Shown piece by piece: positions 2,086 through 29,523 of a stretch of 39,156 bases of DNA. The notes beneath the pieces are model-generated. The model was given only the letters and a program-made list of their open reading frames with translations. It was not told the DNA's origin and searched no databases. A program made the position numbers and the translations under genes. Positions within the stretch are counted from its first letter, which is position 1; each line of letters begins with the position of its first letter. Where the stretch lies: positions 1 to 39,156 of the forward strand of contig WAPT01000019.1 of the NCBI GenBank assembly GCA_015520605.1. The letters are read 5' to 3'. The DNA is from Nanobdellati archaeon. GTDB taxonomy: Archaea; EX4484-52; WAPT01.

Positions 2086-4380
2086 CTACCCAAAGTAGCC
2101 CAACTCTTCCGGCTTTCTTAGCTCCTTTATCCTTTCTATTTTCCTCTTGAAGGACTCTATGTCGTTTTTGGTGAGGGAGGGCTTTATGACGTTCATCGCT
2201 TCTTCAAAATGTCTCATACGCACCTTTTTTGCATTTATCTTCTCTCTCAAAGTTATCAGCGCAGCCTCCCTGCATAGCGCTTCAATGTCGGCTCCTGTGT
2301 AATTTTCAGTTCTCTCCGCTATCTTCTCCAGATCAACATCGTCAGCCAGAGGCATATTCCTTGTGTGAACTTTAAGGATCTCAAGTCTGGCTTTCTGGTC
2401 TGGAGGGGGCACATAAATGTGCCTGTCGAACCTTCCTGGCCTCATTAAAGCTGGATCAAGCACCTCCGGCCTGTTTGTTGCACCTATAACTATAACACCA
2501 CCAAGTCCTTCCAGCCCGTCCATCTCCGCAAGGAGCTGTGTCACAACACGTCCCATGACCTCGTTTTCGGTTGTGAAGCTTCTTTTTGATGCGATAGCGT
2601 CAATCTCATCTATAAAGATTATAGACGGAGCCACCTGCCTTGCCTTTCTAAAGATCTCCCTTATCCTCTTCTCGCTCTCCCCTACCCATTTGGAAAAGAT
2701 CTCCGGTCCTTTTATATAAATGAAGTTGGCCTCGCTCTCATTGGCCACAGCCTTAGCTAACAATGTCTTTCCCGTTCCAGGAGGCCCATAAAGAAGCACA
2801 CCCTTTGGCGGTTTTATACCCATTCTCTTGAACGCTTCCGGGTGCTTGAGTGGCCACTCCACCATCTCTCTAAGCTGCTGCTTCTGCTTCTCAAGCCCAC
2901 CTATATCATTCCATCTTACTTTTGGCACCTCAATCATAACTTCACGCATCGCACTTGGTTCAACAACCATCAAGGCATTCTTGAAATCCTCCATGGTCAC
3001 CTGTAACTTCTCCAGCACTTCTGGTGGGAGCTCATCTTCGTCCAGATTAATCTCGGGGAGCACCCTCCTAAGAGCGGACATTGCAGCCTCCTTCACAAGC
3101 GCCGCCAGATCAGCCCCAACATAACCATGGGTTATATCGGCTATCTTCTCCAGATCAACATCGTCAGCCAGAGGCATATTCCTTGTGTGAATCTGCAGTA
3201 TTTCAAGCCTCCCGTTTCTGTCCGGCACACCGATCTCTATCTCCCTGTCAAACCTTCCCGGTCTTCTCAAAGCTGGGTCAAGCGCGTCAGGTCTGTTTGT
3301 TGCTCCTATGACTATTACCTGTCCTCTGCTCTTCAACCCATCCATACATGCAAGAAGCTGCGCGACTATTCTTCTTTCAACTTCCCCGGTAACATCCTCC
3401 CTTTTTGGGGCTATGGCGTCAATCTCATCTATGAAAATTATAGACGGAGCGTTTTCTTCAGCTTCTTTAAATATGTCTCTTATCTTCTTCTCACTTTCTC
3501 CATACCACTTACTTGTTATTTCCGGCCCGTTGATGGAAATAAAGTAAGCACCGCTCTCATTGGCCACAGCCTTAGCTAACAATGTCTTTCCCGTTCCAGG
3601 AGGCCCATAAAGAAGCACACCCTTTGGCGGCTCTATGCCCAGCCTCTCAAACAGTTCTGGATGTTTCAACGGGAGCTCTATCATTTCCCTTACCTTTCTC
3701 ACAGCTTCCTTAAGTCCACCTATATCTTCATAGGTTACCACAGGAACAGCGCCCTTCTCTTCTGCAACATCCACGCTTTGACTAAGAACCTCAACTCTCG
3801 TATTTTCTGTTATTATCACTATACCGGATGGCTCGGTCTTAACAACCCTAAAGAGCACCTCTCCAAAACCAAGAGCAAAGAGCTCATCAATTCCGAAGCC
3901 TGTGAAGAAATCGGATCTGTATGGATGGCCTCTCCTTCTTGGTGCGGGCAGAATTATATCGCCCTTAACCATAACTCTTCCCAACAACACCCGTTTCATA
4001 TGCTCTCCTGGGATGTGAACCACAACTCCCTTCTGCGCCGGAGCAAGTACAACCTTCTTGGCTTCTTTTATCTCAGCCTTTCTCACCACAACTGTCTCGC
4101 TGACGGAAACTCCAGCATTCCTCCTCGTATAACCGTCCATCCTTATTATGTCCAGTCCCGCATCGGAAGGATACGATCTGAGAGCTATGGCCGCTGTCTT
4201 TCTTTTCCCCTCTATCTCTACAGGCTGGCCTTCTTTCACTCCTATTTCGGCGAGTCTCCTGAGGTCTATTCTAACAATTCCGATGCCTATATCTGATTGC
4301 GCGCTGCTCGGTATCTCTCCAACCTTGAGTCTTATTTCCTTTTTCTTGCTTCCTCTATTTTCCCTTCCCTCTCCAACCAT
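2086..4380 (-). CDS. cdc48: CDC48/VCP family AAA+ ATPase
   Basis: N-domain ([13 protein letters not shown]), two AAA modules (GPPGTGKT twice, [10 protein letters not shown] twice, RPGRFDR twice), C-terminal YFG tail resembling HbYX. Confidence 0.98.
2318..3191. repeat. Identical 52-bp direct repeat between cdc48 D1 and D2 (2318-2369 and 3140-3191)
   Basis: gctatcttctccagatcaacatcgtcagccagaggcatattccttgtgtgaa read at both positions; encodes [17 protein letters not shown]. Confidence 0.9.
2733..3630. repeat. Identical 79-bp direct repeat between cdc48 D1 and D2 (2733-2811 and 3552-3630)
   Basis: Both copies read cgctctcattggccacagcc...ccctttggcgg with no mismatch; encodes [26 protein letters not shown]. 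Confidence 0.9.
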
Positions 4381-4434
4381 AAGTACTCTATTTGTTATAC
4401 TGAATTTTTAAATATTGGAAGAAAAAGCTACCAC

Positions 4435-5136
4435 ATGGTGAATGTCCTCAAGCTGAGGTGGGAACAGTTAAATGTTTTTCTTGGGGGAGGAGTGGAAAAG
4501 GGCATAATAACCAACGTGTACGGTGTTGCTGGCGCTGGCAAAACCAACTTTGCGCTTGAAGTGACGATAGCAGCACTCCTTGAAGGAAAAAAGACAGTGT
4601 TCATTGACACGGAGAGAAACTTTTCTCCAGAAAGATTTTTGCAGATGCATCCCAGAAAGGAAGATCTGGAAAGAGTGCTGATCTTCGAGCCATTCTCCTT
4701 CTACGAGCAACATAAAGTTATTCTAGAAAAACTTCCCGAAATCCTAAAGAAGGAGGATGTTGGTGTTGTTATCATAGATTCCATGGTGGCTCTTTATAGA
4801 CTTGAGATGAGGCACGAGAAAGCACAAGAAGTCAATGCTATGCTCAGCGAGCAGTTTGTGCAGCTTGCTAAACTTGCAAAGTATCACAACATTCCCGTGG
4901 TGGTGACATGTCAGGTTTACACACCCTTCGACACAGAGGAGCTTGAGATAGTGGGGAGAGACATCCCGAAATACTCATCGAAGTGCATGATCCTGCTTGA
5001 AAAGAAGAACTTCAACGAAAGGAGAGCAACTCTTATGAAACATCGCTACATGCCCGAGGGAGTATCCATCGATCTCAAAATAACAAATAAAGGTCTTACG
5101 CCCGCCGGATCAAGGAAGTTTGCTATCTTTAAATAG
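4435..5136 (+). CDS. radB: DNA repair and recombination protein RadB
   Basis: RecA core without the RadA N-domain: GVAGAGKT, FIDTE, IIDS, C-terminal KHR basic patch typical of RadB. Start moved to ATG 4435 because the longer ORF overlaps cdc48. Confidence 0.93.
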   Translation: MVNVLKLRWEQLNVFLGGGVEKGIITNVYGVAGAGKTNFALEVTIAALLEGKKTVFIDTERNFSPERFLQMHPRKEDLERVLIFEPFSFYEQHKVILEKLPEILKKEDVGVVIIDSMVALYRLEMRHEKAQEVNAMLSEQFVQLAKLAKYHNIPVVVTCQVYTPFDTEELEIVGRDIPKYSSKCMILLEKKNFNERRATLMKHRYMPEGVSIDLKITNKGLTPAGSRKFAIFK

Positions 5137-5748: not shown

Positions 5749-7803
5749 CTTCTTTTTACTTCTTTTTTTGCAGCTGGGGTCTAAGCAGATGAACCAATGA
5801 GAGCTCTTTTTGCCTTTAGTTCGCATAATGACTCTTATAATGGGAGTACCACAGGTTTCACACACCCTCCCCGTCGGTATTATTTGACCTTTGGTTGGAA
5901 GAGGATAAGAAATTTTACATTTAGGATATGTGTCACATGACACAAATCTCTTGCCAGATTTTCCCTTTCTTATTATAAGATTGCCTCCACATTTACACTT
6001 GCCGAGTACACGCTCCTTGGATTCCATATCTTTTATGGAATACACAAGTTCCTTCCCCAACTCTTCCTCCTTTTCCTTGAGTTTATTTAGCACAGATATA
6101 AGATGGTTCTTTGCCTCCACCACTATTTCATCACTTTTTGCGATTCCTTTGCTTATTTTCTCAAGCTTTTCCTCGAACTCACGAGTTAGTTCTTCGTCCA
6201 TAATTCTTTCAGCATACTCCTTCAATATTGTTACGACCTTCTCTCCGATGGGAGTTATCTCTATTTTATTACCCTTTATGTACTTTCTTTCATATAGGTG
6301 GTGCACTATTTCAGCTCTTGTTGCCTTCGTTCCGAGGTTTCTCTTTTCAAGCTCCCTCACGAGAGAGGCAGCGGTGTATCTGTCTGGTGGAGTAGTCATT
6401 TTCTTTTCAAGCTTTACCTTATCTACGGGGTAGGTGCCATTAAGGGTGAATGCCGGCAGCTCAATCTCTTTACTTCTCAAGTAGGGTTTGTATGCTCTGT
6501 ACCAGCCTTCATGAACCACCTGCACTCCCGTTGCGATGAATTTGGCGCCATTGGCATCAAAAACAACCTTTGTGAGCATTTTTTCAGCAGGTTCCATGAA
6601 ACAAGCAAGAAACCTTCTTACGATGAGATCATAAATTTTCGCTTCATTTTTACCTAGATTTTGAGGAACCTCTCCTGTGGGGTGGATGGCCGGATGTGCT
6701 TCATCATCCTTCTTCCCTTCCTTAGGAATCAGAAGACGCTTGCTTAACAACTCCGCCACAACACTTTGATATTGTGAGATCTTTGATATACCATGCAAAA
6801 TCTTGTGAAAGTCAATTGTTCTGGGAAGCTTCTGCGAGCTCGTTCTGGGGTAGGAGATTAGGGACATTTCATAAAGCTTCTGCGCTATGTCCTGTGTCTG
6901 TTTCGGGCTGAGCTTGAAGAGCGCGTAAGCTTCAGCCTGCAAGTCGTTGAGATTGAACGACGCGGGTGGGTTGTGTTTCTTTTTCTTCCTGTTTATCTCA
7001 GCAACCCTAGCGTGTTTCGTTGCTTTCACCTTTCTGTGGAGATCTCTTGCAACAACCTCTTTTTCTATCTTACCTCCTTCATATTCTGCTTTTACCCCCA
7101 TTACCTCTATGCTGAGCTTCCAATAGGGTGTTGGCATAAACTGCCTTATCTCAAGCTCCCTGTCGTAAACTATCTTCAATGCAGGCCCCTGAACCCTCCC
7201 GCTGCTCAGTATGAAGTGTCTTCCTGCCTTTTTTACTGCGCTCATCAGAGCTCTGCTTACATTAATCCCCCAAAAATAATCTAAAATGTGTCGCGTGACA
7301 CCCGCTTCTGCAAGCCCGAAGAGAATGGTCGGTTTGGCATTCTCATACGCTTTAACAAGGTCGTCCTTTGTCAGGGTGGAGAAAAGCATACGCTGTGCAT
7401 TTTTTCTGTTACATATAAAGCGCAGGATGTTGAATCCGATAGTCTCGCCCTCAATATCGTAGTCTGTGGCTACGATTATCTTCTTGGACTTGTTGCTGAG
7501 CATTTTTATGGCAGAAATGTATTCTTTAGTATATGTCGCACTCTTACCGACAACATACAGCGGTTTCCACTCGACATCGAATACAGGGTAGTGGTTATAC
7601 GCTACCTTCTCCCTTTCCGCCAGCCCAAAAAGATGCCCTGCAGCCCCCACAACTGCTATTTTTTTGCCCTTCCTCTCTATCTCAAAATAAGGAACCTTGC
7701 CGTGCCTTTTCGTTATAATCTTTGATTCCGCAAGTGCCTGCGCTATCTTTCTTGCACTGGAAGGCTTCTCAGCTATGATGAGCTCATCGTACATTTCCAT
7801 CAT
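5737..7803 (-). CDS. topA: Type IA DNA topoisomerase
   Basis: TOPRIM IIAEKPS and ATDYDIEGE, SSGRVQGP, catalytic Tyr in ISYPRT, LGTKATR, C-terminal Cys zinc ribbons. Confidence 0.97.
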   Translation of the reverse strand: MMEMYDELIIAEKPSSARKIAQALAESKIITKRHGKVPYFEIERKGKKIAVVGAAGHLFGLAEREKVAYNHYPVFDVEWKPLYVVGKSATYTKEYISAIKMLSNKSKKIIVATDYDIEGETIGFNILRFICNRKNAQRMLFSTLTKDDLVKAYENAKPTILFGLAEAGVTRHILDYFWGINVSRALMSAVKKAGRHFILSSGRVQGPALKIVYDRELEIRQFMPTPYWKLSIEVMGVKAEYEGGKIEKEVVARDLHRKVKATKHARVAEINRKKKKHNPPASFNLNDLQAEAYALFKLSPKQTQDIAQKLYEMSLISYPRTSSQKLPRTIDFHKILHGISKISQYQSVVAELLSKRLLIPKEGKKDDEAHPAIHPTGEVPQNLGKNEAKIYDLIVRRFLACFMEPAEKMLTKVVFDANGAKFIATGVQVVHEGWYRAYKPYLRSKEIELPAFTLNGTYPVDKVKLEKKMTTPPDRYTAASLVRELEKRNLGTKATRAEIVHHLYERKYIKGNKIEITPIGEKVVTILKEYAERIMDEELTREFEEKLEKISKGIAKSDEIVVEAKNHLISVLNKLKEKEEELGKELVYSIKDMESKERVLGKCKCGGNLIIRKGKSGKRFVSCDTYPKCKISYPLPTKGQIIPTGRVCETCGTPIIRVIMRTKGKKSSHWFICLDPSCKKRSKKKLTL

Positions 7804-9095
7804 CGCTTGGACTTTGGCTCAATTTTCTTTATTCCATTCATGTATGGCCACAACACTTTAGGAATGTCCACACTGCCATCTTCATTCTGATAATTTTCAA
7901 GGATAGCACACATGGTTCTCTCCGTTGCTATGCCAGTACAGTTAAGGATGTGTACATAGCCCTTCGGTTTGCTTCCCTCTTTTTCCCTCCACTTTATGTT
8001 AAGCTTCCTAGCCTGATAATCTGTGCAGTTGCTCCCACTCACCACCTCTCTATACTTTTGCTGAGCCGGAAACCAAACCTCTATATCGTACTTTTTGGCA
8101 GCATTATCGTTCATCTCTCCGGAACATATATTTACCACCCTGTACGGCAGTCCCAGCTCCTGGTAGAACTCCTCGGCATTCTGAATCATCCTTTCATGCC
8201 AGTCCCAGCTTTCCTCCGGCAGGCAGAATACTATTTGCTCAACCTTGTCGAACTGGTGCACCCTGAAGATGCCTTTGGTATCTTTTCCATGTGCTCCAGA
8301 TTCCCGCCTAAAATTAGTTGAGAACCCCACATACTTAAGTGGGAGCTCATCCTTCAGAAACGTCTCATTCATGTGGTATGAAAGGATCGATTGTTCTGCT
8401 GTGGCTATGAGGTAGGCATCCATGCCTTCAACCTTGTATAGAGTTTCCTCAAAATCAGCAAGTTCTGAGGCCCCTTTCATGGCCTCACCACTTATCATAT
8501 ACGGCGTCCAAAGTGGTATAAATCCCTTGGCCGTTAGCTTATCGAAGGCATACCTTATTAAAGCGAGGTTGAGCAGCACGAGCTCGTTTCTTAGGTAATA
8601 GAACCTTGATCCGATAACCTTGGCAGCTCTGGCAACATCAGCAACATCGAGGATCTCTATCAGATCAGCATGCCCTTTTGGCTCGAAATCGAATCTCTTG
8701 GGATTTTCCCATGTCCTAACCACAACATTATCTTCCTCGCTCTCACCCACAGGCACGCTCTCATGTAGTATGTTTCCTATTCTGTAGCGGAGCTCATCTC
8801 TCTTCTGGAGGAGCTCGGCAGCTTTCTTCTCAAGCTCATCAACCCTTCGCTTTAGATCCTTCATTTTTTGAGCAAGATCCTCGGGAGTTGAACTTCTTTC
8901 TTTTCTCCTCTTTGCAACTTCGGAAAGAATCCTGTTCCTCTTCTCTCTCAGCTTCTGAAGCTCCCGTATGCTTTCCCTCCATTTTGCATCGTACTCCAAC
9001 ACTTTGTCCACTATGGACGGGTCTTTGAATCTTTTTCGCTCGGATTCCTTAACTATTTCGGGGTGTTGCCTTATGAAGTCCATGTCGAGCATCAC
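7800..9095 (-). CDS. serS: Seryl-tRNA synthetase
   Basis: MLD start, N-terminal coiled-coil arm, LIATAE, motif 2 FRRESG..GIFRVHQFDKVE, SGSNCTDYQAR, motif 3 ATER. Confidence 0.98.
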   Translation of the reverse strand: MMLDMDFIRQHPEIVKESERKRFKDPSIVDKVLEYDAKWRESIRELQKLREKRNRILSEVAKRRKERSSTPEDLAQKMKDLKRRVDELEKKAAELLQKRDELRYRIGNILHESVPVGESEEDNVVVRTWENPKRFDFEPKGHADLIEILDVADVARAAKVIGSRFYYLRNELVLLNLALIRYAFDKLTAKGFIPLWTPYMISGEAMKGASELADFEETLYKVEGMDAYLIATAEQSILSYHMNETFLKDELPLKYVGFSTNFRRESGAHGKDTKGIFRVHQFDKVEQIVFCLPEESWDWHERMIQNAEEFYQELGLPYRVVNICSGEMNDNAAKKYDIEVWFPAQQKYREVVSGSNCTDYQARKLNIKWREKEGSKPKGYVHILNCTGIATERTMCAILENYQNEDGSVDIPKVLWPYMNGIKKIEPKSKR

Positions 9096-9140
9096 ACATC
9101 ACCAAGAACCTTTTAATAATTCACCGAGTGTTAAATTTTT

Positions 9141-9782
9141 ATGGGTTTATTGTCTTTCTTCTTTAGAAACAAAAAGGTCGAGAAACTGGAAACTGATGTG
9201 AAAAACATAAAAAATGAGCTTGAAAGTATAAGAACCGAGATTGAAAACACGAAAGAGCTGCTTTCATCTCTGAGTTCGGCGATAAAGCTACTTGACTCAA
9301 AATTAAAAAAGGAAGCGGAAAAGTTCAACATCAAGATGGAAGAGGTTGAAGAAAAAATATCTATCTTGATCAGATCAACTAAAATCGGGGTTGAAGCTAA
9401 AAAGGAAGTAGAAAGCATAAAGTTAAAGATAGAAGAGTTGGAAAAGTTGGTGGAGAACAAAAAAATTCGTGAAAAGAAAAAAGGATCAGAACGTAAAATT
9501 CCTGATGTGGGGATCGAAGACCGCGCTTTGTCACCGCAATCATCCGACTTCATGAAAACACTATCCCACGCGGAAAGAGAAATCATTTCTGTTTTGCTAT
9601 CTTCGGAAATTCCGCTTAGCTATGAGGAGATTGCGGAAAAGTGCGGTAAGTCACCCAGCACTGTCAGAGATCACATAAACAGTATAAGGAGAAAAGCCGA
9701 CATCATTGAGGTTGTCGAAGCTCCGGACAGAAAAAAGCTCTTCAAGATAATACCTCTCGTGAGGAAGGAGCTGATTTTCTAG
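9141..9782 (+). CDS. Uncharacterised protein: N-terminal amphipathic helix, coiled coil, C-terminal winged helix-turn-helix
   Basis: MGLLSFFFRNKK N-terminus; heptad-rich E/K segment (about aa 12-108); LSHAEREIISVLL...LSYEEIAEKCGKSPSTVRDHINSIRRK wHTH with a beta-wing. Confidence 0.85.
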   Translation: MGLLSFFFRNKKVEKLETDVKNIKNELESIRTEIENTKELLSSLSSAIKLLDSKLKKEAEKFNIKMEEVEEKISILIRSTKIGVEAKKEVESIKLKIEELEKLVENKKIREKKKGSERKIPDVGIEDRALSPQSSDFMKTLSHAEREIISVLLSSEIPLSYEEIAEKCGKSPSTVRDHINSIRRKADIIEVVEAPDRKKLFKIIPLVRKELIF

Positions 9783-9790
9783 CTTGGTTG

Positions 9791-9995
9791 TTTTGTCGAA
9801 TTTTTCGACACAACTTCGACAGACATTCGACACAACTTCGACACAAACGTAATTTTTCGACACAACTTTTTTATAGAAATCAGCATGCATTAACCCACCA
9901 ACATTTTGACAACTAAATCTTTTTGTCGAATTTTTCGACACAACTCCGACAGACATTCGACACAACTTCGACACAAACGTAATTTTTCGACACAA
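9791..9995. repeat. Two 75-bp direct repeats (9791-9865, 9921-9995; one mismatch) made of phased TTCGACA boxes, separated by a 55-bp AT-rich spacer; iteron-like
   Basis: Each copy has an inverted box TGTCGAA followed by TTCGACA boxes (copy 1: 9804, 9815, 9826, 9837, 9856; spacing 11, 11, 11, 19). Copy 2 is offset by 130 bp and has T>C at 9946. Confidence 0.95.
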
Positions 9996-10052
9996 GAATG
10001 GTACGATTAACGAACATAAACTTACTAAAAACGGTGCTAGTATGTTTTAAAT

Positions 10053-11141
10053 TCATCGGGTGATCTCCACACTTTTAATGAACTCGTAGAGTTCCTTCGC
10101 CTTCCTGTTCTTCTCGAAGTGCTCTCGTATTGGTTTGATTAAGCCCTCCAAATAGCTTGCTACCGCCATCTTCAAGTCAAGAGGGTGAAGCTTGCCTTCT
10201 TTGTAATCCTTTTCCACCTCTTCGTATGACCCGTAGATACTGTCTCCGCCGTATTTTGGAGGTCTTTCAACCTTAAAATCGCTGAATGCTCTGAAAATTA
10301 TGTGCTTCACGTACTCGAGTACTGGATTATCTTCCACGACTCTCGCAGGACAGTAAGCCTTTTTAAGTTTCCTCACAATTTCTTCATAGCTGTCGTGAAC
10401 GAAGATGGCAGAATCCGGCTTACTCTTGCTCATTTTTGAAGATATTTCCTTGTCTATTTTTTCGTTCTTGTCAAACCCCTCGGTCTTTTTCGGGCCCTGC
10501 AGACCCATAAGCATGTGGTGGCTCACTATTACGGGCTTCCTCCATTTCAGTTTATCCGCGATCTCTCTCGCTAGCATGTTAACCTTTCTTTGATCAAGCC
10601 CAAGCTGGCAGATATCCACATCCAGCTGAAATATGTCGGCACACTGCATTGACGGATAGAACAGGAACGCGGTCGGGTTGCTGAGCTTTCCCACTCTCCC
10701 TGCTATTGTCAGGGCTCTTAAACCCCTCTGAATTGTGTGGTTCTTTGCTATCAGTATGACCTTCTTCCAGTACTCGGGATCATCGAAGAACTCTTTGTGC
10801 CAGATAACTTCAACCTTATTCATGTCAACTCCTGCAGCTTTCCACACCTCGACAAAATACTCACCACACTTCCTTATTTTTTCAAGATCCCCACATAGTT
10901 TGTTGTTTATCCATGCGAACGTATCAGCAAGTAAAAGTTTGAAATGCACGCCAGCTTTCATGAGATCTCTGAGTAGGAGGGGCCTAAACACCCCTACAGG
11001 CAAGTGCGCGAGCCCGCTCGGCTCAAATCCGTCGTATGCCGTAATTTTTTCTTTCGTCTCGACAAGTTCCCTCAGCTCAGCTTTGGTTACTATCTCTTCC
11101 CCCACCCCGGCTATCAACTCAAACCTCGTTTCGGCATCCAT
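10053..11141 (-). CDS. tyrS: Tyrosyl-tRNA synthetase (archaeal type)
   Basis: YDGFEPSG, HIGH variant HLPVG, YPSMQCADIF, GLDQRK, KMSKS, LHPLDLK. Confidence 0.97.
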   Translation of the reverse strand: MDAETRFELIAGVGEEIVTKAELRELVETKEKITAYDGFEPSGLAHLPVGVFRPLLLRDLMKAGVHFKLLLADTFAWINNKLCGDLEKIRKCGEYFVEVWKAAGVDMNKVEVIWHKEFFDDPEYWKKVILIAKNHTIQRGLRALTIAGRVGKLSNPTAFLFYPSMQCADIFQLDVDICQLGLDQRKVNMLAREIADKLKWRKPVIVSHHMLMGLQGPKKTEGFDKNEKIDKEISSKMSKSKPDSAIFVHDSYEEIVRKLKKAYCPARVVEDNPVLEYVKHIIFRAFSDFKVERPPKYGGDSIYGSYEEVEKDYKEGKLHPLDLKMAVASYLEGLIKPIREHFEKNRKAKELYEFIKSVEITR

Positions 11142-25960: not shown

Positions 25961-25965
25961 TCGTT

Positions 25966-26184
25966 TCACTTTCTCTCCTTAAGTTTCCAGTAAACTTTCT
26001 TGCTTTCTCCGATCCTCGCTATCCTGTATTCGCAATCTATCTTCCCAGCATCCTTGAGTCTGTAACAGTGCGTGTTCGCGGTGCTCCAGCTTATCCCCAA
26101 CTTCTTTGCTATTTGGTATGTGGTGAGCGGTTCTTTCGCTTCTTTCAGCACTCTAATTATAGCGTTATCTATGCTTTCGGGCAT
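25966..26184 (-). CDS. Small stand-alone winged HTH protein (putative transcription regulator)
   Basis: IIRVLKEAKEPLTTYQIAKKLGISWSTANTHCYRLKDAGKI wHTH; start set to ATG 26184, preceded by GGTG. Confidence 0.8.
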   Translation of the reverse strand: MPESIDNAIIRVLKEAKEPLTTYQIAKKLGISWSTANTHCYRLKDAGKIDCEYRIARIGESKKVYWKLKERK

Positions 26185-26546
26185 GAAAAAACACCATTCT
26201 CGACGTATCGAGATATAAACCTGATTCAAAATAAGACCACAACCTCTATATAAAGATTTCGGTTTTGAATAGTTGATTTATTGATGTTCTTACTTTTATT
26301 TTTTCCTTCCGACAAAAATACCCGTAAAACACATCTCCTTTATAATAAAATAAAACCTGCTTATCACAATACCTTAACTAATGTGATCTATATATTCGGA
26401 TAAAATACGCAACTAAGCATCTGTTTTCGAATCTCATGAACTAAGCAAGTTTGATTTCAAAAAAATATTTTAAACTATTCTTCTTTCTTGTTTCACGACT
26501 TTCCCTGTGGGTGATTTATTTTAAAGTTTTTCATTAAGGTAAGTTT

Positions 26547-26762
26547 ATGGAAACATTAGTAAATAAACGACCTGGGGTGTATGTTGTTAAAGACGTTTTA
26601 GGAGGCTATTGGTGTAAACAGAAACTTTATGAACTTGGCATATGTCCTGGAAAAGAAATAAAATTAATAACTTTTTGGCATAAAGGAGCGGTGTTGATTA
26701 GGGTTGAAAATACTAAAATAGCACTTGGTAGGCGCATGGCCAGTAAGATAATTGTGGAATGA
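26547..26762 (+). CDS. feoA: Ferrous iron transport protein A
   Basis: KLYELGICPGKEI...IALGR.MASKIIVE SH3-like FeoA signature; upstream of feoB. Confidence 0.92.
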   Translation: METLVNKRPGVYVVKDVLGGYWCKQKLYELGICPGKEIKLITFWHKGAVLIRVENTKIALGRRMASKIIVE

Positions 26763-26934
26763 TGTTTTTATCGTGGTATGTCGGTGGTACTGCCAAATCT
26801 GATCATATAAAATAATTAAGACGGGCGATTGTATTGATGCTAATATATTCTAAAAAATTTCAATTAATTTTAATTGCACGTATTTATTTGATGCTTGTCC
26901 TTTTCACAACAAAACATTAACATAAAAGGGGTAA

Positions 26935-28872
26935 ATGATGAGTGAAAATATATTGATAGTGCTGGTTGGACAGCCAAACGTTGGAAAAACAACATTATTT
27001 AATGGACTAACTGGAAATAAGCAATCCGTAGGGAATTGGCCGGGGGTTACTGTTGAAAAACGCGAGGGTGTGTTGAAAATCAACAACAAGGAATTTAATG
27101 TTGTCGATTTGCCCGGGATTTATTCGTTAATCTCAGATTCTATAGATCAAAAAATAGCAAGGGATTTTTTAATAAATAATGATGATGCAATCATTTTAAA
27201 CATTATTGATACTCCAAACATAAATAGAAACTTATACCTGACCTTGCAGCTAATTGAGATGGGAAAAAGCCCGATTTTATGTTTGAATTTAATCGATGAG
27301 GCCGAAAGATTCGGGATATTTGTTGATGATAAAAAACTTAGCAAAAAACTGAACTTACCAGTCATAAAGATATCTGGCAGGTATAATTTGGGAATAGACA
27401 AATTAAAAAAAGCAATCTATAACTACGAGCCAAGGGAACCCAACACGATAAAGTATTCCCCGCTACTAGAAGAATGCATAGGCGAGATTATCGAAAAACT
27501 AAATAACACACAACTCGACAAATTTTCCAAACTCCCGAAAAGATGGATAGCAATATCGTTACTTGAGGGAGATCCAGAAATCTTAGAGACATTTAAAAAT
27601 AATGACGAGATCATAAATCACGTAATAAAATTAAAAAAAAGAGTCGAGAATGAAATAAAGCACGATATCGAGAGTTATATTGTTGAAGAAAGATACCGTG
27701 TTTGCGACGAATTATTGAGAGATGTGCTGGCTTTCAATGAGGTCTATGATGATATTGATGTCATTGTTGTGCACCCGGTTTATGGTACTATAATTTTTGT
27801 AGGCGTCATGTATTTAATGTATAATCTCGTTTTTGGTATCGGAGGGATTGTTTCGAAGATGATAAAGGAGTTTTTTGAATTCATTAGTCAGATTCTAGCT
27901 AATATTTTACCGCCTGTATGTAAGGGATTCATTATTAATGGTTTGTTGGCGGGAGTTAGTGCCGTCTTGGCATTTTACCCCCAGATAGTTTTGATTATGC
28001 TTTTCATATCGCTCTTGGAAGATTGCGGGTATCTCGCAAGAGTTGCTGCGTTGACACATTCGGTAATGTCGAAGTTCGGTCTGAGCGGAAAATCGGCTGT
28101 ACCGATGATTTTAAGTTTTGGGTGTAACGTTCCCGGCATAATGGCAACACGAATAATTGAGGATTCAAGGGAGAGGTTATCGACAATATTGGTGACTCCT
28201 TTAGTGCCATGCTCGGCGAGATTTGTGATTATTGGGTTTTTGGCAGGAGCTTTCTTTGCATCACATAAGACGTTATTCACTTTGTCGATATTACTGATGT
28301 CGTTAAGTTTGATGTTCATAGTGTCTTTTTTGGTTGAAAAGCTTTTATTCAAGGAAAATATCGATTTGTTCATATTTGAACTTCCTCCATATAGAGTACC
28401 AGATTTGAGAAACGTCTTGAAGATGACATGGGAGAGAAGTAAAGAATTTTTAATAAAAGTAGGGACAATAATCGCACTAGGTTCTCTAACTTCCTATTAT
28501 ATTTTCAACTATCCGAACATGAGAGAAAGTTATGCGGCAACTATCGGGAAGGTTCTTGAGCGTATAACCTCTTTAATGGGGTTAGATTGGAGAGGGGCAA
28601 TGGCATTAGTATTCGGAATATTCGCAAAAGAACTGGTTGTTTCTACACTGAACATTGTTTATGGAAATGTCACCAATTATTTAACTCCTTTGGAGGCATT
28701 TGTTCTATGTTTGGTTTCAGTTATCTACATCCCGTGTTTGGCAACAATTGCTACCATTTATACGGAAACTAAGAGTATAAAGTGGACATTATTTGAGATA
28801 TTTTACAACCTAATCCTTGCGACTACGATAGGCATCATTGTTTACCATCTTGGAAAATTACTTGGATTTTAA
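26935..28872 (+). CDS. feoB: Ferrous iron transport protein B
   Basis: GTPase motifs GQPNVGKTT, NWPGVTVE, DLPG; membrane part with LEDCGYLAR, FGCNVP, PCSAR, FELPPYR, YIPCLAT. Confidence 0.98.
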   Translation: MMSENILIVLVGQPNVGKTTLFNGLTGNKQSVGNWPGVTVEKREGVLKINNKEFNVVDLPGIYSLISDSIDQKIARDFLINNDDAIILNIIDTPNINRNLYLTLQLIEMGKSPILCLNLIDEAERFGIFVDDKKLSKKLNLPVIKISGRYNLGIDKLKKAIYNYEPREPNTIKYSPLLEECIGEIIEKLNNTQLDKFSKLPKRWIAISLLEGDPEILETFKNNDEIINHVIKLKKRVENEIKHDIESYIVEERYRVCDELLRDVLAFNEVYDDIDVIVVHPVYGTIIFVGVMYLMYNLVFGIGGIVSKMIKEFFEFISQILANILPPVCKGFIINGLLAGVSAVLAFYPQIVLIMLFISLLEDCGYLARVAALTHSVMSKFGLSGKSAVPMILSFGCNVPGIMATRIIEDSRERLSTILVTPLVPCSARFVIIGFLAGAFFASHKTLFTLSILLMSLSLMFIVSFLVEKLLFKENIDLFIFELPPYRVPDLRNVLKMTWERSKEFLIKVGTIIALGSLTSYYIFNYPNMRESYAATIGKVLERITSLMGLDWRGAMALVFGIFAKELVVSTLNIVYGNVTNYLTPLEAFVLCLVSVIYIPCLATIATIYTETKSIKWTLFEIFYNLILATTIGIIVYHLGKLLGF

Positions 28873-28893
28873 AAGTTAAAAAAGAACAAATCT

Positions 28894-29523
28894 CTACTTG
28901 TTTGTATCTATTTCTATAGCCTTTCTTATCTGGTGAAGCAGCTCAGCTGGGCTTTTGATCGGATACTCAAGTTTGTCGAGTATCTCTTCTATTGGCCTGC
29001 CCTTTATCACGAGTCCACCGAGTCTGTTTTTCAGTGTGTTCTTTTCCACTGGAAAGTCTGCCCCCTTGAGCCTTGATAGCACATGTACCGCCCATTCGGC
29101 ACCTAAGCTTTTCACAGCCTGCTTAGTTATTTCTATTGCGAGGTTGATCTCATCCCTGCCTGCCATGATCTCTTGGTAAGCGAGCTTTGCAAGGGCCCCC
29201 GCTGTGTGTGTTCTCCTTTCCTCGTCCTTCTCCGCTACAATTTCCTCACCCAACTTTGCTTTAAGCACCTCAGGATCAGCTCTTAACATGTTCTGCACAC
29301 TCTGTTTTGTCATACCTAGCAATGACGCTATGGTTTCGGCGCTATAACTCTTATCCTTAGCATACACTATGGCATAGCTGGCTGCCATCAAGCTTGGAAG
29401 CCATGTTAAATTGCGGTGCTCCACAAGCTTTTTTGGCCCGCCGAGTATCTCTATACTCTTAAGAAAAACTCTCATTGCCTTTGAATCAACATCCTCCACA
29501 ACGGGCTTAACCTCCACTACCAT
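28894..29523 (-). CDS. KaiC-associated regulatory-domain protein (near-KaiC family) with a small C-terminal helical domain
   Basis: LGGP..L.E.RNLTWLPSLM.A.Y, an HTH-like segment (AETIASLLGMTKQSVQNML) and HTAGALAKLAY; overlaps the KaiC-domain gene. Confidence 0.75.
   Translation of the reverse strand: MVVEVKPVVEDVDSKAMRVFLKSIEILGGPKKLVEHRNLTWLPSLMAASYAIVYAKDKSYSAETIASLLGMTKQSVQNMLRADPEVLKAKLGEEIVAEKDEERRTHTAGALAKLAYQEIMAGRDEINLAIEITKQAVKSLGAEWAVHVLSRLKGADFPVEKNTLKNRLGGLVIKGRPIEEILDKLEYPIKSPAELLHQIRKAIEIDTNK

Follow-up and report, generated by a model that had tools for sequence, protein, structure and literature searches.

The parC site of R1 is described as two sets of five 11-bp iterons that lie 39 bp apart and are loaded separately, each set being filled cooperatively by ParR, a small DNA-binding protein encoded alongside (PMC2241845). 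The tubC centromeres are described as direct repeats split into blocks, which a small DNA-binding protein binds and spreads upon to give a higher-order segrosome (PMC6009700), and RacA as a protein that anchors the chromosome and in which a disordered region connects a winged helix-turn-helix (HTH) domain with a coiled coil (PMC4914108). Here, we describe an array of 12 boxes built on the 7-mer TTCGACA, which occupies 205 bp of a 39,156-nt stretch of DNA from a Nanobdellati archaeon (contig WAPT01000019.1, assembly GCA_015520605.1; the whole stretch is referred to as the window) and lies directly behind the gene of a small protein, P0001. The locus is a gene-linked iteron array for a candidate DNA-binding protein. 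Of known systems, parC and tubC come closest to it in DNA layout and RacA in protein layout, and the box sequence carries a faint echo of MsvR sites; the defining features failed for each family that we tested, and the locus is therefore not a member of any named system.

With parC as described for R1, the array shares its division into two clusters, each with about five direct repeats at an 11-bp period, and a spacer of some 40–55 bp between them. ParR is a ribbon-helix-helix protein, whereas P0001, the candidate binder, is a winged HTH protein; parC lies upstream of the par operon and holds its promoter, whereas the array lies downstream, between convergent genes; and, unlike in type II partition, no actin-like ParM gene is found among the window translations (32, covering the plausible genes and scanned with Pfam), and the locus is chromosomal and syntenic. 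With tubC the array shares the arrangement of direct repeats split into blocks. TubR is itself a winged HTH protein, but tubC precedes tubR and has the tubulin-like TubZ as its partner, whereas the array lies downstream of its gene and the window holds no tubulin/FtsZ-like gene; PDB searches with P0001 returned no relation to TubR. RacA of Bacillus subtilis is resembled by the predicted architecture of P0001, with its winged HTH, disordered linker and coiled coil, yet the domain order is reversed in P0001, where the coiled coil comes first, the ram sites of RacA are GC-rich and dispersed in contrast to one dense array beside the gene, and no homology to RacA was detected for P0001 in PDB sequence or Foldseek searches. 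An archaeal chromosomal site next to the gene of its site-specific binder is reportedly represented by the SegB centromere beside segAB in Sulfolobales, and in this respect our locus, an archaeal chromosomal site beside the gene of a candidate binder, is alike. SegB works with the ParA-type SegA of the same operon, whereas no ParA-type gene occurs among the window translations, and the PDB sequence search with P0001 gave no similarity to SegB.

The array consists of two units that a repeat search identifies as direct copies, 74/75 (99%) identical, with their starts 130 bp apart (Table 1). In unit 1, exact TTCGACA boxes start at 9794 (−), 9804, 9815, 9826, 9837 and 9856, and in unit 2 at 9924 (−), 9934, 9956, 9967 and 9986, with start-to-start steps of 10, 11, 11, 11 and 19 bp. 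An earlier note on this DNA had described the two 75-bp units at 9791–9995, a palindrome that opens each of them, further boxes at 11-bp steps with the last one 19 bp on, and a 55-bp spacer with a degenerate TTTGACA; all of these are found where the note had placed them, and the box positions confirm the palindrome and the steps. Absent from that description is the single difference between the units, which gives TCCGACA at 9945–9951 of unit 2. Tandem Repeats Finder calls both arrays with a period of 11, 3.9 copies and the consensus TTCGACACAAC (the call in unit 1 covers 9804–9846), so that the true repeat is 11 bp (7 + 4), and the linkers CAAC and GACA take turns, which results in an effective 22-bp alternation. 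Counting the TCCGACA at 9945 and leaving out the one-mismatch box of the spacer (TTTGACA, 9905–9911), 10 of the 12 boxes in the units point the same way. The inverted pair at the opening of each unit is proposed as a candidate dimer entry site.

The clustering of the boxes lies far outside what chance would give. TTCGACA occurs 19 times in the window as compared with 5.08 ± 2.25 times (maximum 10) in 100 dinucleotide-preserving shuffles of the window, none of which reaches 19, and 11 of the 19 occurrences fall within 9794–9992. Exact 7-mers that recur at least three times at a fixed period of 8–24 bp are confined to the array in the window and are found in 0/20 shuffles; the array is also the sole long non-coding repeat of the window, and no second cluster and no paired boxes occur elsewhere in its 39 kb or in 31 kb of related loci. 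Within these 70 kb, the array is thus no member of a dispersed family. Inside the coding region of the HTH gene, a lone TGTCGAA and its surroundings (9713–9729) match the inverted pair with three mismatches; one related locus (L001) retains this element and the other (L002) does not, so that it probably stems from the VVEAPDR codons.

A scan of a contig collection returned 36 stretches that match the pattern, two of which, L001 and L002, encode a relative of P0001. L001 (JALVWC010000002.1) holds an inverted pair at 10654–10670 and one further box before the contig ends at 10686, which is probably an assembly break at the repeat. L002 is more distant, with coding DNA ~73% identical to that of the window, and its gene order matches that of the window through cdc48, radB, a phosphoribosyltransferase-like gene, topA, serS, the HTH gene, the array, tyrS, rtcA and the subtilase gene. 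Right after the stop codon of the HTH gene, L002 again has a two-cluster array (10628–10695 and 10734–10816), with 14 of the 19 exact boxes of the locus within 10638–10816, again in 11-bp steps, and with 11 of 15 boxes pointing the same way. Inverted pairs again stand at the openings of the clusters, exact at 10745–10761 and with a single mismatch at 10628–10644, and a further exact one lies at 10679–10695, whose right half is the counterpart of the distal box (10689). As single-stranded DNA, cluster 1 of L002 folds with a z score of −4.89, which its two inverted pairs explain, as compared with −1.19 for unit 1 of the window. The spacer of L002 is 38 bp long with a guanine–cytosine (GC) content of 37%, as against 55 bp and 31% in the window, and the first direct boxes of clusters 1 and 2 are 117 bp apart in L002 and 130 bp in the window.

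Aligned to L002, the positions inside the boxes are identical in 82/84 cases, whereas identity falls to 39/66 for the non-box positions inside the units, 28/65 for the tail columns and 19/55 for the spacer columns (unit 1 as a whole, 63/75 columns; unit 2, 58/78). The linker that reads CAAC in the window reads CATC in every copy of L002, while GACA and the box are kept. Box sequence, register, inverted pairs and the arrangement in two blocks have all been retained, which points to selection acting on the boxes rather than to neutral slippage. The suggestion in the earlier note that conserved cores with variable linkers mark selected protein-binding sites gains support from the contrast of 82/84 with 19/55 and from the CAAC to CATC change. 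The same note had allowed for the array being absent in close relatives; its presence in both related loci refutes this. In all three genomes the array abuts a P0001-type gene, and array and upstream gene are inherited as one module.

Could the array nonetheless be functionless tandem DNA, whether a slippage product, a satellite or a fault of assembly? The linkers have changed uniformly, which shows that the array is homogenised by slippage or gene conversion; units 1 and 2 are 74/75 identical, as after a recent duplication; and the contig of one relative breaks at the array. Against this stand the retention of boxes, inverted pairs, 11-bp register and two clusters over ~27% divergence while spacer and tail were randomised, the two clusters of L002, an independent assembly, which are no copies of each other, and the lack of another copy in 70 kb of window and related loci. 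We regard a functionless array as highly improbable.

Table 1. Coordinates of the array components and of the adjoining genes in the window
Feature	Position	Strand	Details
Unit 1	9791–9865	+	75 nt, 6 boxes
Inverted pair, unit 1	9794–9810		TGTCGAA-TTT-TTCGACA; half-site starts 10 bp apart
Four head-to-tail 11-bp repeats, unit 1	9804–9847	+	TTCGACA + 4; linkers CAAC, GACA, CAAC, CAAA
Distal box, unit 1	9856–9862	+	19 bp past the preceding box
Spacer	9866–9920		55 bp; starts CTTTTTTATAGAAAT; GC 31%
Unit 2	9921–9995	+	75 nt, 5 exact boxes and TCCGACA at 9945–9951
Inverted pair, unit 2	9924–9940		TGTCGAA-TTT-TTCGACA
Tandem repeats, unit 2	9934–9976	+	
Distal box, unit 2	9986–9992	+	
P0001 gene	9141–9782	+	213 aa; open reading frame; candidate box binder
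serS/P0001 divergent promoter region	9096–9140		45 bp; TATA-like CCTTTTAATAA; no TTCGACA box
serS	7800–9095	−	NCBIfam serS, 524.9 bits (cut-off 301.65); flank, divergent from the P0001 gene
tyrS	10053–11141	−	Pfam tRNA-synt_1b; NCBIfam tyrosine--tRNA ligase, 380.8 bits (cut-off 220); flank

The most informative neighbour of the array is the P0001 gene, which lies between serS and the array and which the earlier note had left unmentioned. Of the 270 bp that separate the stop codons of P0001 (9782, +) and tyrS (10053, −), the array takes up the greater part, and it thus sits between two convergent 3′ ends, away from promoters; the first box follows the P0001 stop codon after 11 nt in the window and in L001 and after 3 nt in L002. 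No boxes occur at the promoter of the P0001 gene itself or at any promoter seen in the window; the promoter stretch at 9096–9140 is nearly identical to its counterpart in L002.

P0001 comprises a hydrophobic and basic N-terminal tip, a coiled coil (residues ~13–113), a disordered linker (115–132), a winged HTH (137–203) and a short last helix. In the AlphaFold2 model (mean predicted local distance difference test score 85.4, predicted template modelling score 0.39) residues 3–113 form one long helix, whose heptad periodicity has a power of 118 as compared with 13 ± 13 for shuffled sequences, none of 1000 of which reaches this value. Because of this heptad signal, and because a lone 110-residue helix is implausible, the long helix of P0001 should oligomerise as a coiled coil. 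At the N-terminus, a short hydrophobic stretch with Lys/Arg after it is present in 95 of 124 gathered proteins of 170–260 aa, the P0001 subfamily included, by a crude criterion specific to this analysis.

P0001, whose gene corresponds to 10001–10639 of L001 and 10001–10621 of L002, evolves much faster than its housekeeping neighbours (82% identity to L001 vs 89–98%; 48% to the L002 orthologue vs ~85% for serS and tyrS), and its divergence is concentrated in the coiled coil and the linker. The winged HTH is 95% identical in the relative P0002 and 63% in P0004, as against 79% and 40% for the coiled coil, and the recognition helix matches that of P0001 at 14/14 and 10/14 positions, respectively. 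These observations bear on the possibility that the boxes are selected binding sites of a protein other than the product of the upstream gene. Linkage is the sole tie between protein and site, and covariation of the two was not observed; on the other hand, the array abuts the gene in 3/3 genomes and, like the boxes, the winged HTH has been conserved, whereas the remainder of the protein has drifted. A different binder is improbable in our view.

What family does P0001 belong to? A word-seeded search found 5 proteins at E ≤ 0.001, P0001 itself included, among 1292 candidates, and a profile search of 1.84 billion representatives retrieved 320, 47 and 4 proteins at E ≤ 1e-3, ≤ 1e-10 and ≤ 1e-30, respectively, the majority being ~200 aa long and matched over their full length. 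In a protein atlas the look-alike clusters belong mostly to Nanobdellota, by automatic assignment, and their names stop at 'HTH type 11 domain'. Longer, fused forms of the family were not found among 6547 candidates, which is weak evidence. The HTH matches of P0001 in Pfam are all near or below cut-off and those in NCBIfam are weak; a PDB sequence search gave no solved relative, only coiled-coil noise and weak LuxR/sigma HTH matches, and Foldseek against the PDB matched the winged HTH only, to domains of MarR/ArsR/MepR type at E ~2e-4. A weak lead is the NCBIfam DNA-binding domain of MsvR, a redox regulator of methanogens (E 6.4e-5, 22.7 bits, family cut-off 220). The MsvR boxes, as described, share the TTCG core of our boxes (PMC3729527), and L002 has TTCG-N7-CGAA at 10671–10685. 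P0001, unlike MsvR, has no V4R domain according to Pfam, its 22.7 bits against 220 come from a match to the DNA-binding domain only, and the boxes of MsvR are at its own promoter whereas those of the array are not.

Against plasmids, P0001 has one ArsR match of 30% coverage in Streptomyces, and against phages it has none; the array DNA has no plasmid match, and the distant family member P0009 matches neither plasmids nor phages. We rejected a mobile origin of the locus, given that the array DNA has no plasmid match, that there is no phage relative and that the position is syntenic. A link to defence was likewise rejected, as the PADLOC matches are limited to the coiled coils and to the winged HTH of CARF/Csa3 proteins, a generic fold.

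Taken together, we tentatively favour, at somewhat less than even chances, that the array is the cognate site of P0001 and that the two blocks of nucleoprotein formed on it serve as a landmark of centromere-like or anchoring type. The first half of this statement, that the boxes are selected sites bound by the neighbouring protein, we rate above the whole. A coiled-coil dimer of P0001 would engage the inverted pair, with its half-sites at a distance of 10 bp, through both of its winged HTH domains, and further winged HTH domains would then occupy the head-to-tail boxes in 11-bp steps, on roughly one face of the helix; such nucleation at the inverted pair followed by one-face spreading is plausible. 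Each cluster would give rise to its own nucleoprotein block, with the non-conserved spacer left free, and the phase between the clusters, which is not kept (130 vs 117 bp), fits independent blocks. The complex would serve as a structural landmark of the chromosome, from which the coiled coil and the N-terminal tip would reach the membrane or a partner. A structural role is favoured because the array lies between convergent gene ends, away from a promoter. We infer P0001 as the binder, its cooperative filling of the boxes, a membrane-binding tip and a role in anchoring or segregation.

Several points weigh against this reading of the array as an anchoring landmark bound by P0001. The comparison set consists of three genomes, namely the window, L001 and L002, and the contig of L001 ends inside the array. 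The uniform change from CAAC to CATC means that concerted evolution homogenises the array, and the array copies are therefore not independent witnesses of selection. The box and most of the recognition helix are invariant among the compared genomes, which leaves no covariation between protein and site, and the winged HTH of P0001 is, by Foldseek, a generic fold. The reading of the N-terminal tip as a membrane-binding element draws on a presumed likeness to membrane-targeting tips. Finally, motor or anchor genes of ParA, ParM or TubZ type are missing among the window translations that were scanned. In a bolder extension, the family of ~200-aa proteins as a whole, with its shared hydrophobic and basic tip, coiled coil, linker and winged HTH, may be a motor-less chromosome-anchoring system of small, DPANN-labelled archaea, in which each protein would bind a parC-like iteron 'centromere' right behind its own gene and tether it to the membrane or the division apparatus. 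We consider this unlikely but far from negligible, and, if true, it would be a previously undescribed archaeal module of segregation or chromosome organisation.

Does the array mark a replication origin instead? Archaeal origins are described as repeats around an AT-rich region beside an initiator gene, one such initiator being the winged-helix protein WhiP (PMC4010727). The array and its gene could then be a replicator–initiator pair, that is, an iteron-type origin, either chromosomal or captured from a plasmid, which opens in the spacer or in the AT-richer tail. The layout matches iteron origins, including those of plasmids, in its direct repeats in helical phase, its inverted partial copy and its winged-helix, DNA-binding gene in cis; the intergenic region has a GC content of 35% as compared with 44% for the window; and the C-terminal winged-helix part of the protein weakly matches the 'replication protein' phrog_17376 (E 1.8e-5 for P0004, 0.0019 for P0001).

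The protein side of the locus speaks against an origin. No gene of Orc1/Cdc6, Cdt1/WhiP, MCM-loader or Rep-like type, or of initiator type in general, is present among the scanned translations across the 39-kb window, where the AAA matches belong to Cdc48 with its CDC48_N and CDC48_2 domains. P0001 has one winged HTH and a 100-residue coiled coil, with neither an AAA+ domain nor a second winged helix, unlike iteron plasmid origins with a cis-encoded Rep with tandem winged-helix domains, and neither the protein nor the DNA has a plasmid or phage relative.

The DNA points the same way. The earlier note had proposed the spacer as an unwinding element, which is not borne out, as neither its sequence (19/55) nor its length (55 vs 38 bp) is kept; its GC content of 31% (37% in L002) compares with 35% (39%) for the whole intergenic region. 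In a nearest-neighbour energy profile, as distinct from a full calculation of stress-induced duplex destabilisation, the least stable 30-bp stretch of the interval is only in the top 2.1% of the window, with 15 separate places in the window less stable, the corresponding 50-bp stretch falls outside the spacer, and the least stable stretches of the interval rank in the top 2–4%. The spacer is thus neither conserved nor unusually unstable. The origins shown in the review have inverted origin recognition boxes (ORBs; PMC4010727), whereas the two 75-nt units are direct and not inverted across the spacer, and the boxes of L002 likewise point mostly one way in both clusters. Unlike archaeal ORB origins with Orc1/Cdc6 or WhiP, the locus has no initiator-type domain and no unwinding region that is conserved or markedly AT-rich. 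GC skew does not turn at the array: it is negative on both sides, with the cumulative minimum at 17–18 kb and not at 9.9 kb. These tests are not decisive, because archaeal origins are diverse and include Sulfolobus oriC3, which has a winged-helix initiator encoded in cis (PMC4010727). Overall, an origin seems distinctly improbable to us.

The position of the array exactly between two convergent 3′ ends also raises the possibility of a transcriptional role, as a roadblock or insulator that stops convergent transcription of the HTH gene and tyrS, as a titration sink for a transcription factor with its real operators elsewhere, or as the site of a small promoter in the spacer. Winged HTH proteins of the fold of P0001 are mostly regulators, and the spacer opens with a T6-ATA element like the TATA-like element of the P0001 gene promoter. 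Yet the spacer is not kept and L002 carries the T-run/TATA-like element on the other strand, the interval has no match to an RNA family and does not outfold shuffled sequences on either strand, 12–15 phased sites far exceed what a roadblock or an operator needs, and the promoters seen in the window have no boxes. A transcriptional role is improbable on balance.

As a further possibility, the head-to-tail boxes, bound by the winged HTH/coiled-coil protein of the adjacent gene, would stop replication forks that come from one direction, so that the array would be a polar barrier or terminus site in the manner of RTP–Ter. RTP of B. subtilis is a winged-helix dimer with a coiled-coil helix and is encoded beside its Ter sites, and the boxes of our array are mostly one-way in both clusters of both genomes (10/12 in the window, 11/15 in L002). 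The inverted pairs break strict polarity, though, and we know of no RTP–Ter-like system in archaea, which also counts against a barrier; we regard it as very improbable.

We found no description of this locus in open-access papers and preprints, and nothing on chromosome segregation in DPANN-labelled lineages in the same literature. Archaeal chromosome organisation and segregation are poorly understood outside Sulfolobales and haloarchaea, and the P0001 family, with its 320 representative clusters, carries no functional name. The locus offers a compact and directly testable pair of one small gene and one 205-bp site of 12 boxes. If the pairing holds true, it would give a handle for finding the equivalent sites of other family members and on how tiny archaeal cells position their DNA; if the array is an origin or a fork barrier instead, it would be an unconventional one that lacks a neighbouring Orc1/Cdc6, an outcome of interest as well.

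Several other identities were considered for the interval. An RNA gene was rejected: there is no Rfam match at E ≤ 1 in 9600–10200, and the fold z scores are −0.66 (+) and +0.29 (−). Coding function was also rejected, as the open reading frames across the array (9651–9995 (−), 9913–10056 (−) and 9788–9916 (+)) give only sub-threshold 'RING-like' matches that arise from repeated Cys codons; moreover, a period of 11 bp does not keep the frame, and it is the 7-mer that conservation tracks, not a reading frame. That the array is not made of clustered regularly interspaced short palindromic repeats, as the earlier note had held, agrees with its 11-bp head-to-tail repeats without unique spacers and its single 55-bp stretch. 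A bacterial-type scan gave 2 promoter-like sites, with 2.0 expected, and 0 terminators, the model being uninformative for an archaeon.

Two short elements of the interval are of note in their own right. The 13-nt motif ATTAACGnACATA (10006–10018 in the window, ~10848–10860 in L002) is kept between the array and the tyrS stop codon, in an otherwise poorly kept tail, and occurs once in the window; it could be a 3′ signal of tyrS or a further site. The element CTTTTTTAT, which looks like the TATA-like element of the promoter of the P0001 gene, follows the last box of cluster 1 on opposite strands, at 9866–9875 (+) in the window and at 10696–10705 (−) in L002.

As to the window as a whole, a contig of a Nanobdellati archaeon matches it over 9.8 kb at 92.4% identity. 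The genes of the window are radA, an OB-fold protein gene, cdc48, radB, a phosphoribosyltransferase-like gene, an archaeal topA, serS, the 213-aa gene, the array, tyrS, rtcA, the gene of a 1442-aa subtilase, a PhoU/AbrB-type regulator gene, the A-type ATPase operon, feoB, kaiC, trkAH, an AMP-phosphorylase-like gene, apgM, tRNA-Pro and herA; the NCBIfam and Pfam matches of the two flanks (Table 1) support their naming as serS and tyrS in the earlier note. The cdc48 open reading frame encodes 897 aa in L002 (2548–5241) as compared with 764 aa in the window (2086–4380), and the best single alignment of the two covers residues 12–404 only, which may reflect an insertion, possibly an intein. The radB reading frame as listed (4297–5136) begins with a TTG that overlaps the start of cdc48; its true start is probably later, because relatives align only from residue 14 or 43. 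Finally, positions 25961–29000, with feoA-like and feoB genes and a small winged-HTH-like reading frame (25966–26229, −), have a GC content of 0.34–0.38 as compared with 0.44 and may be a separately acquired block.

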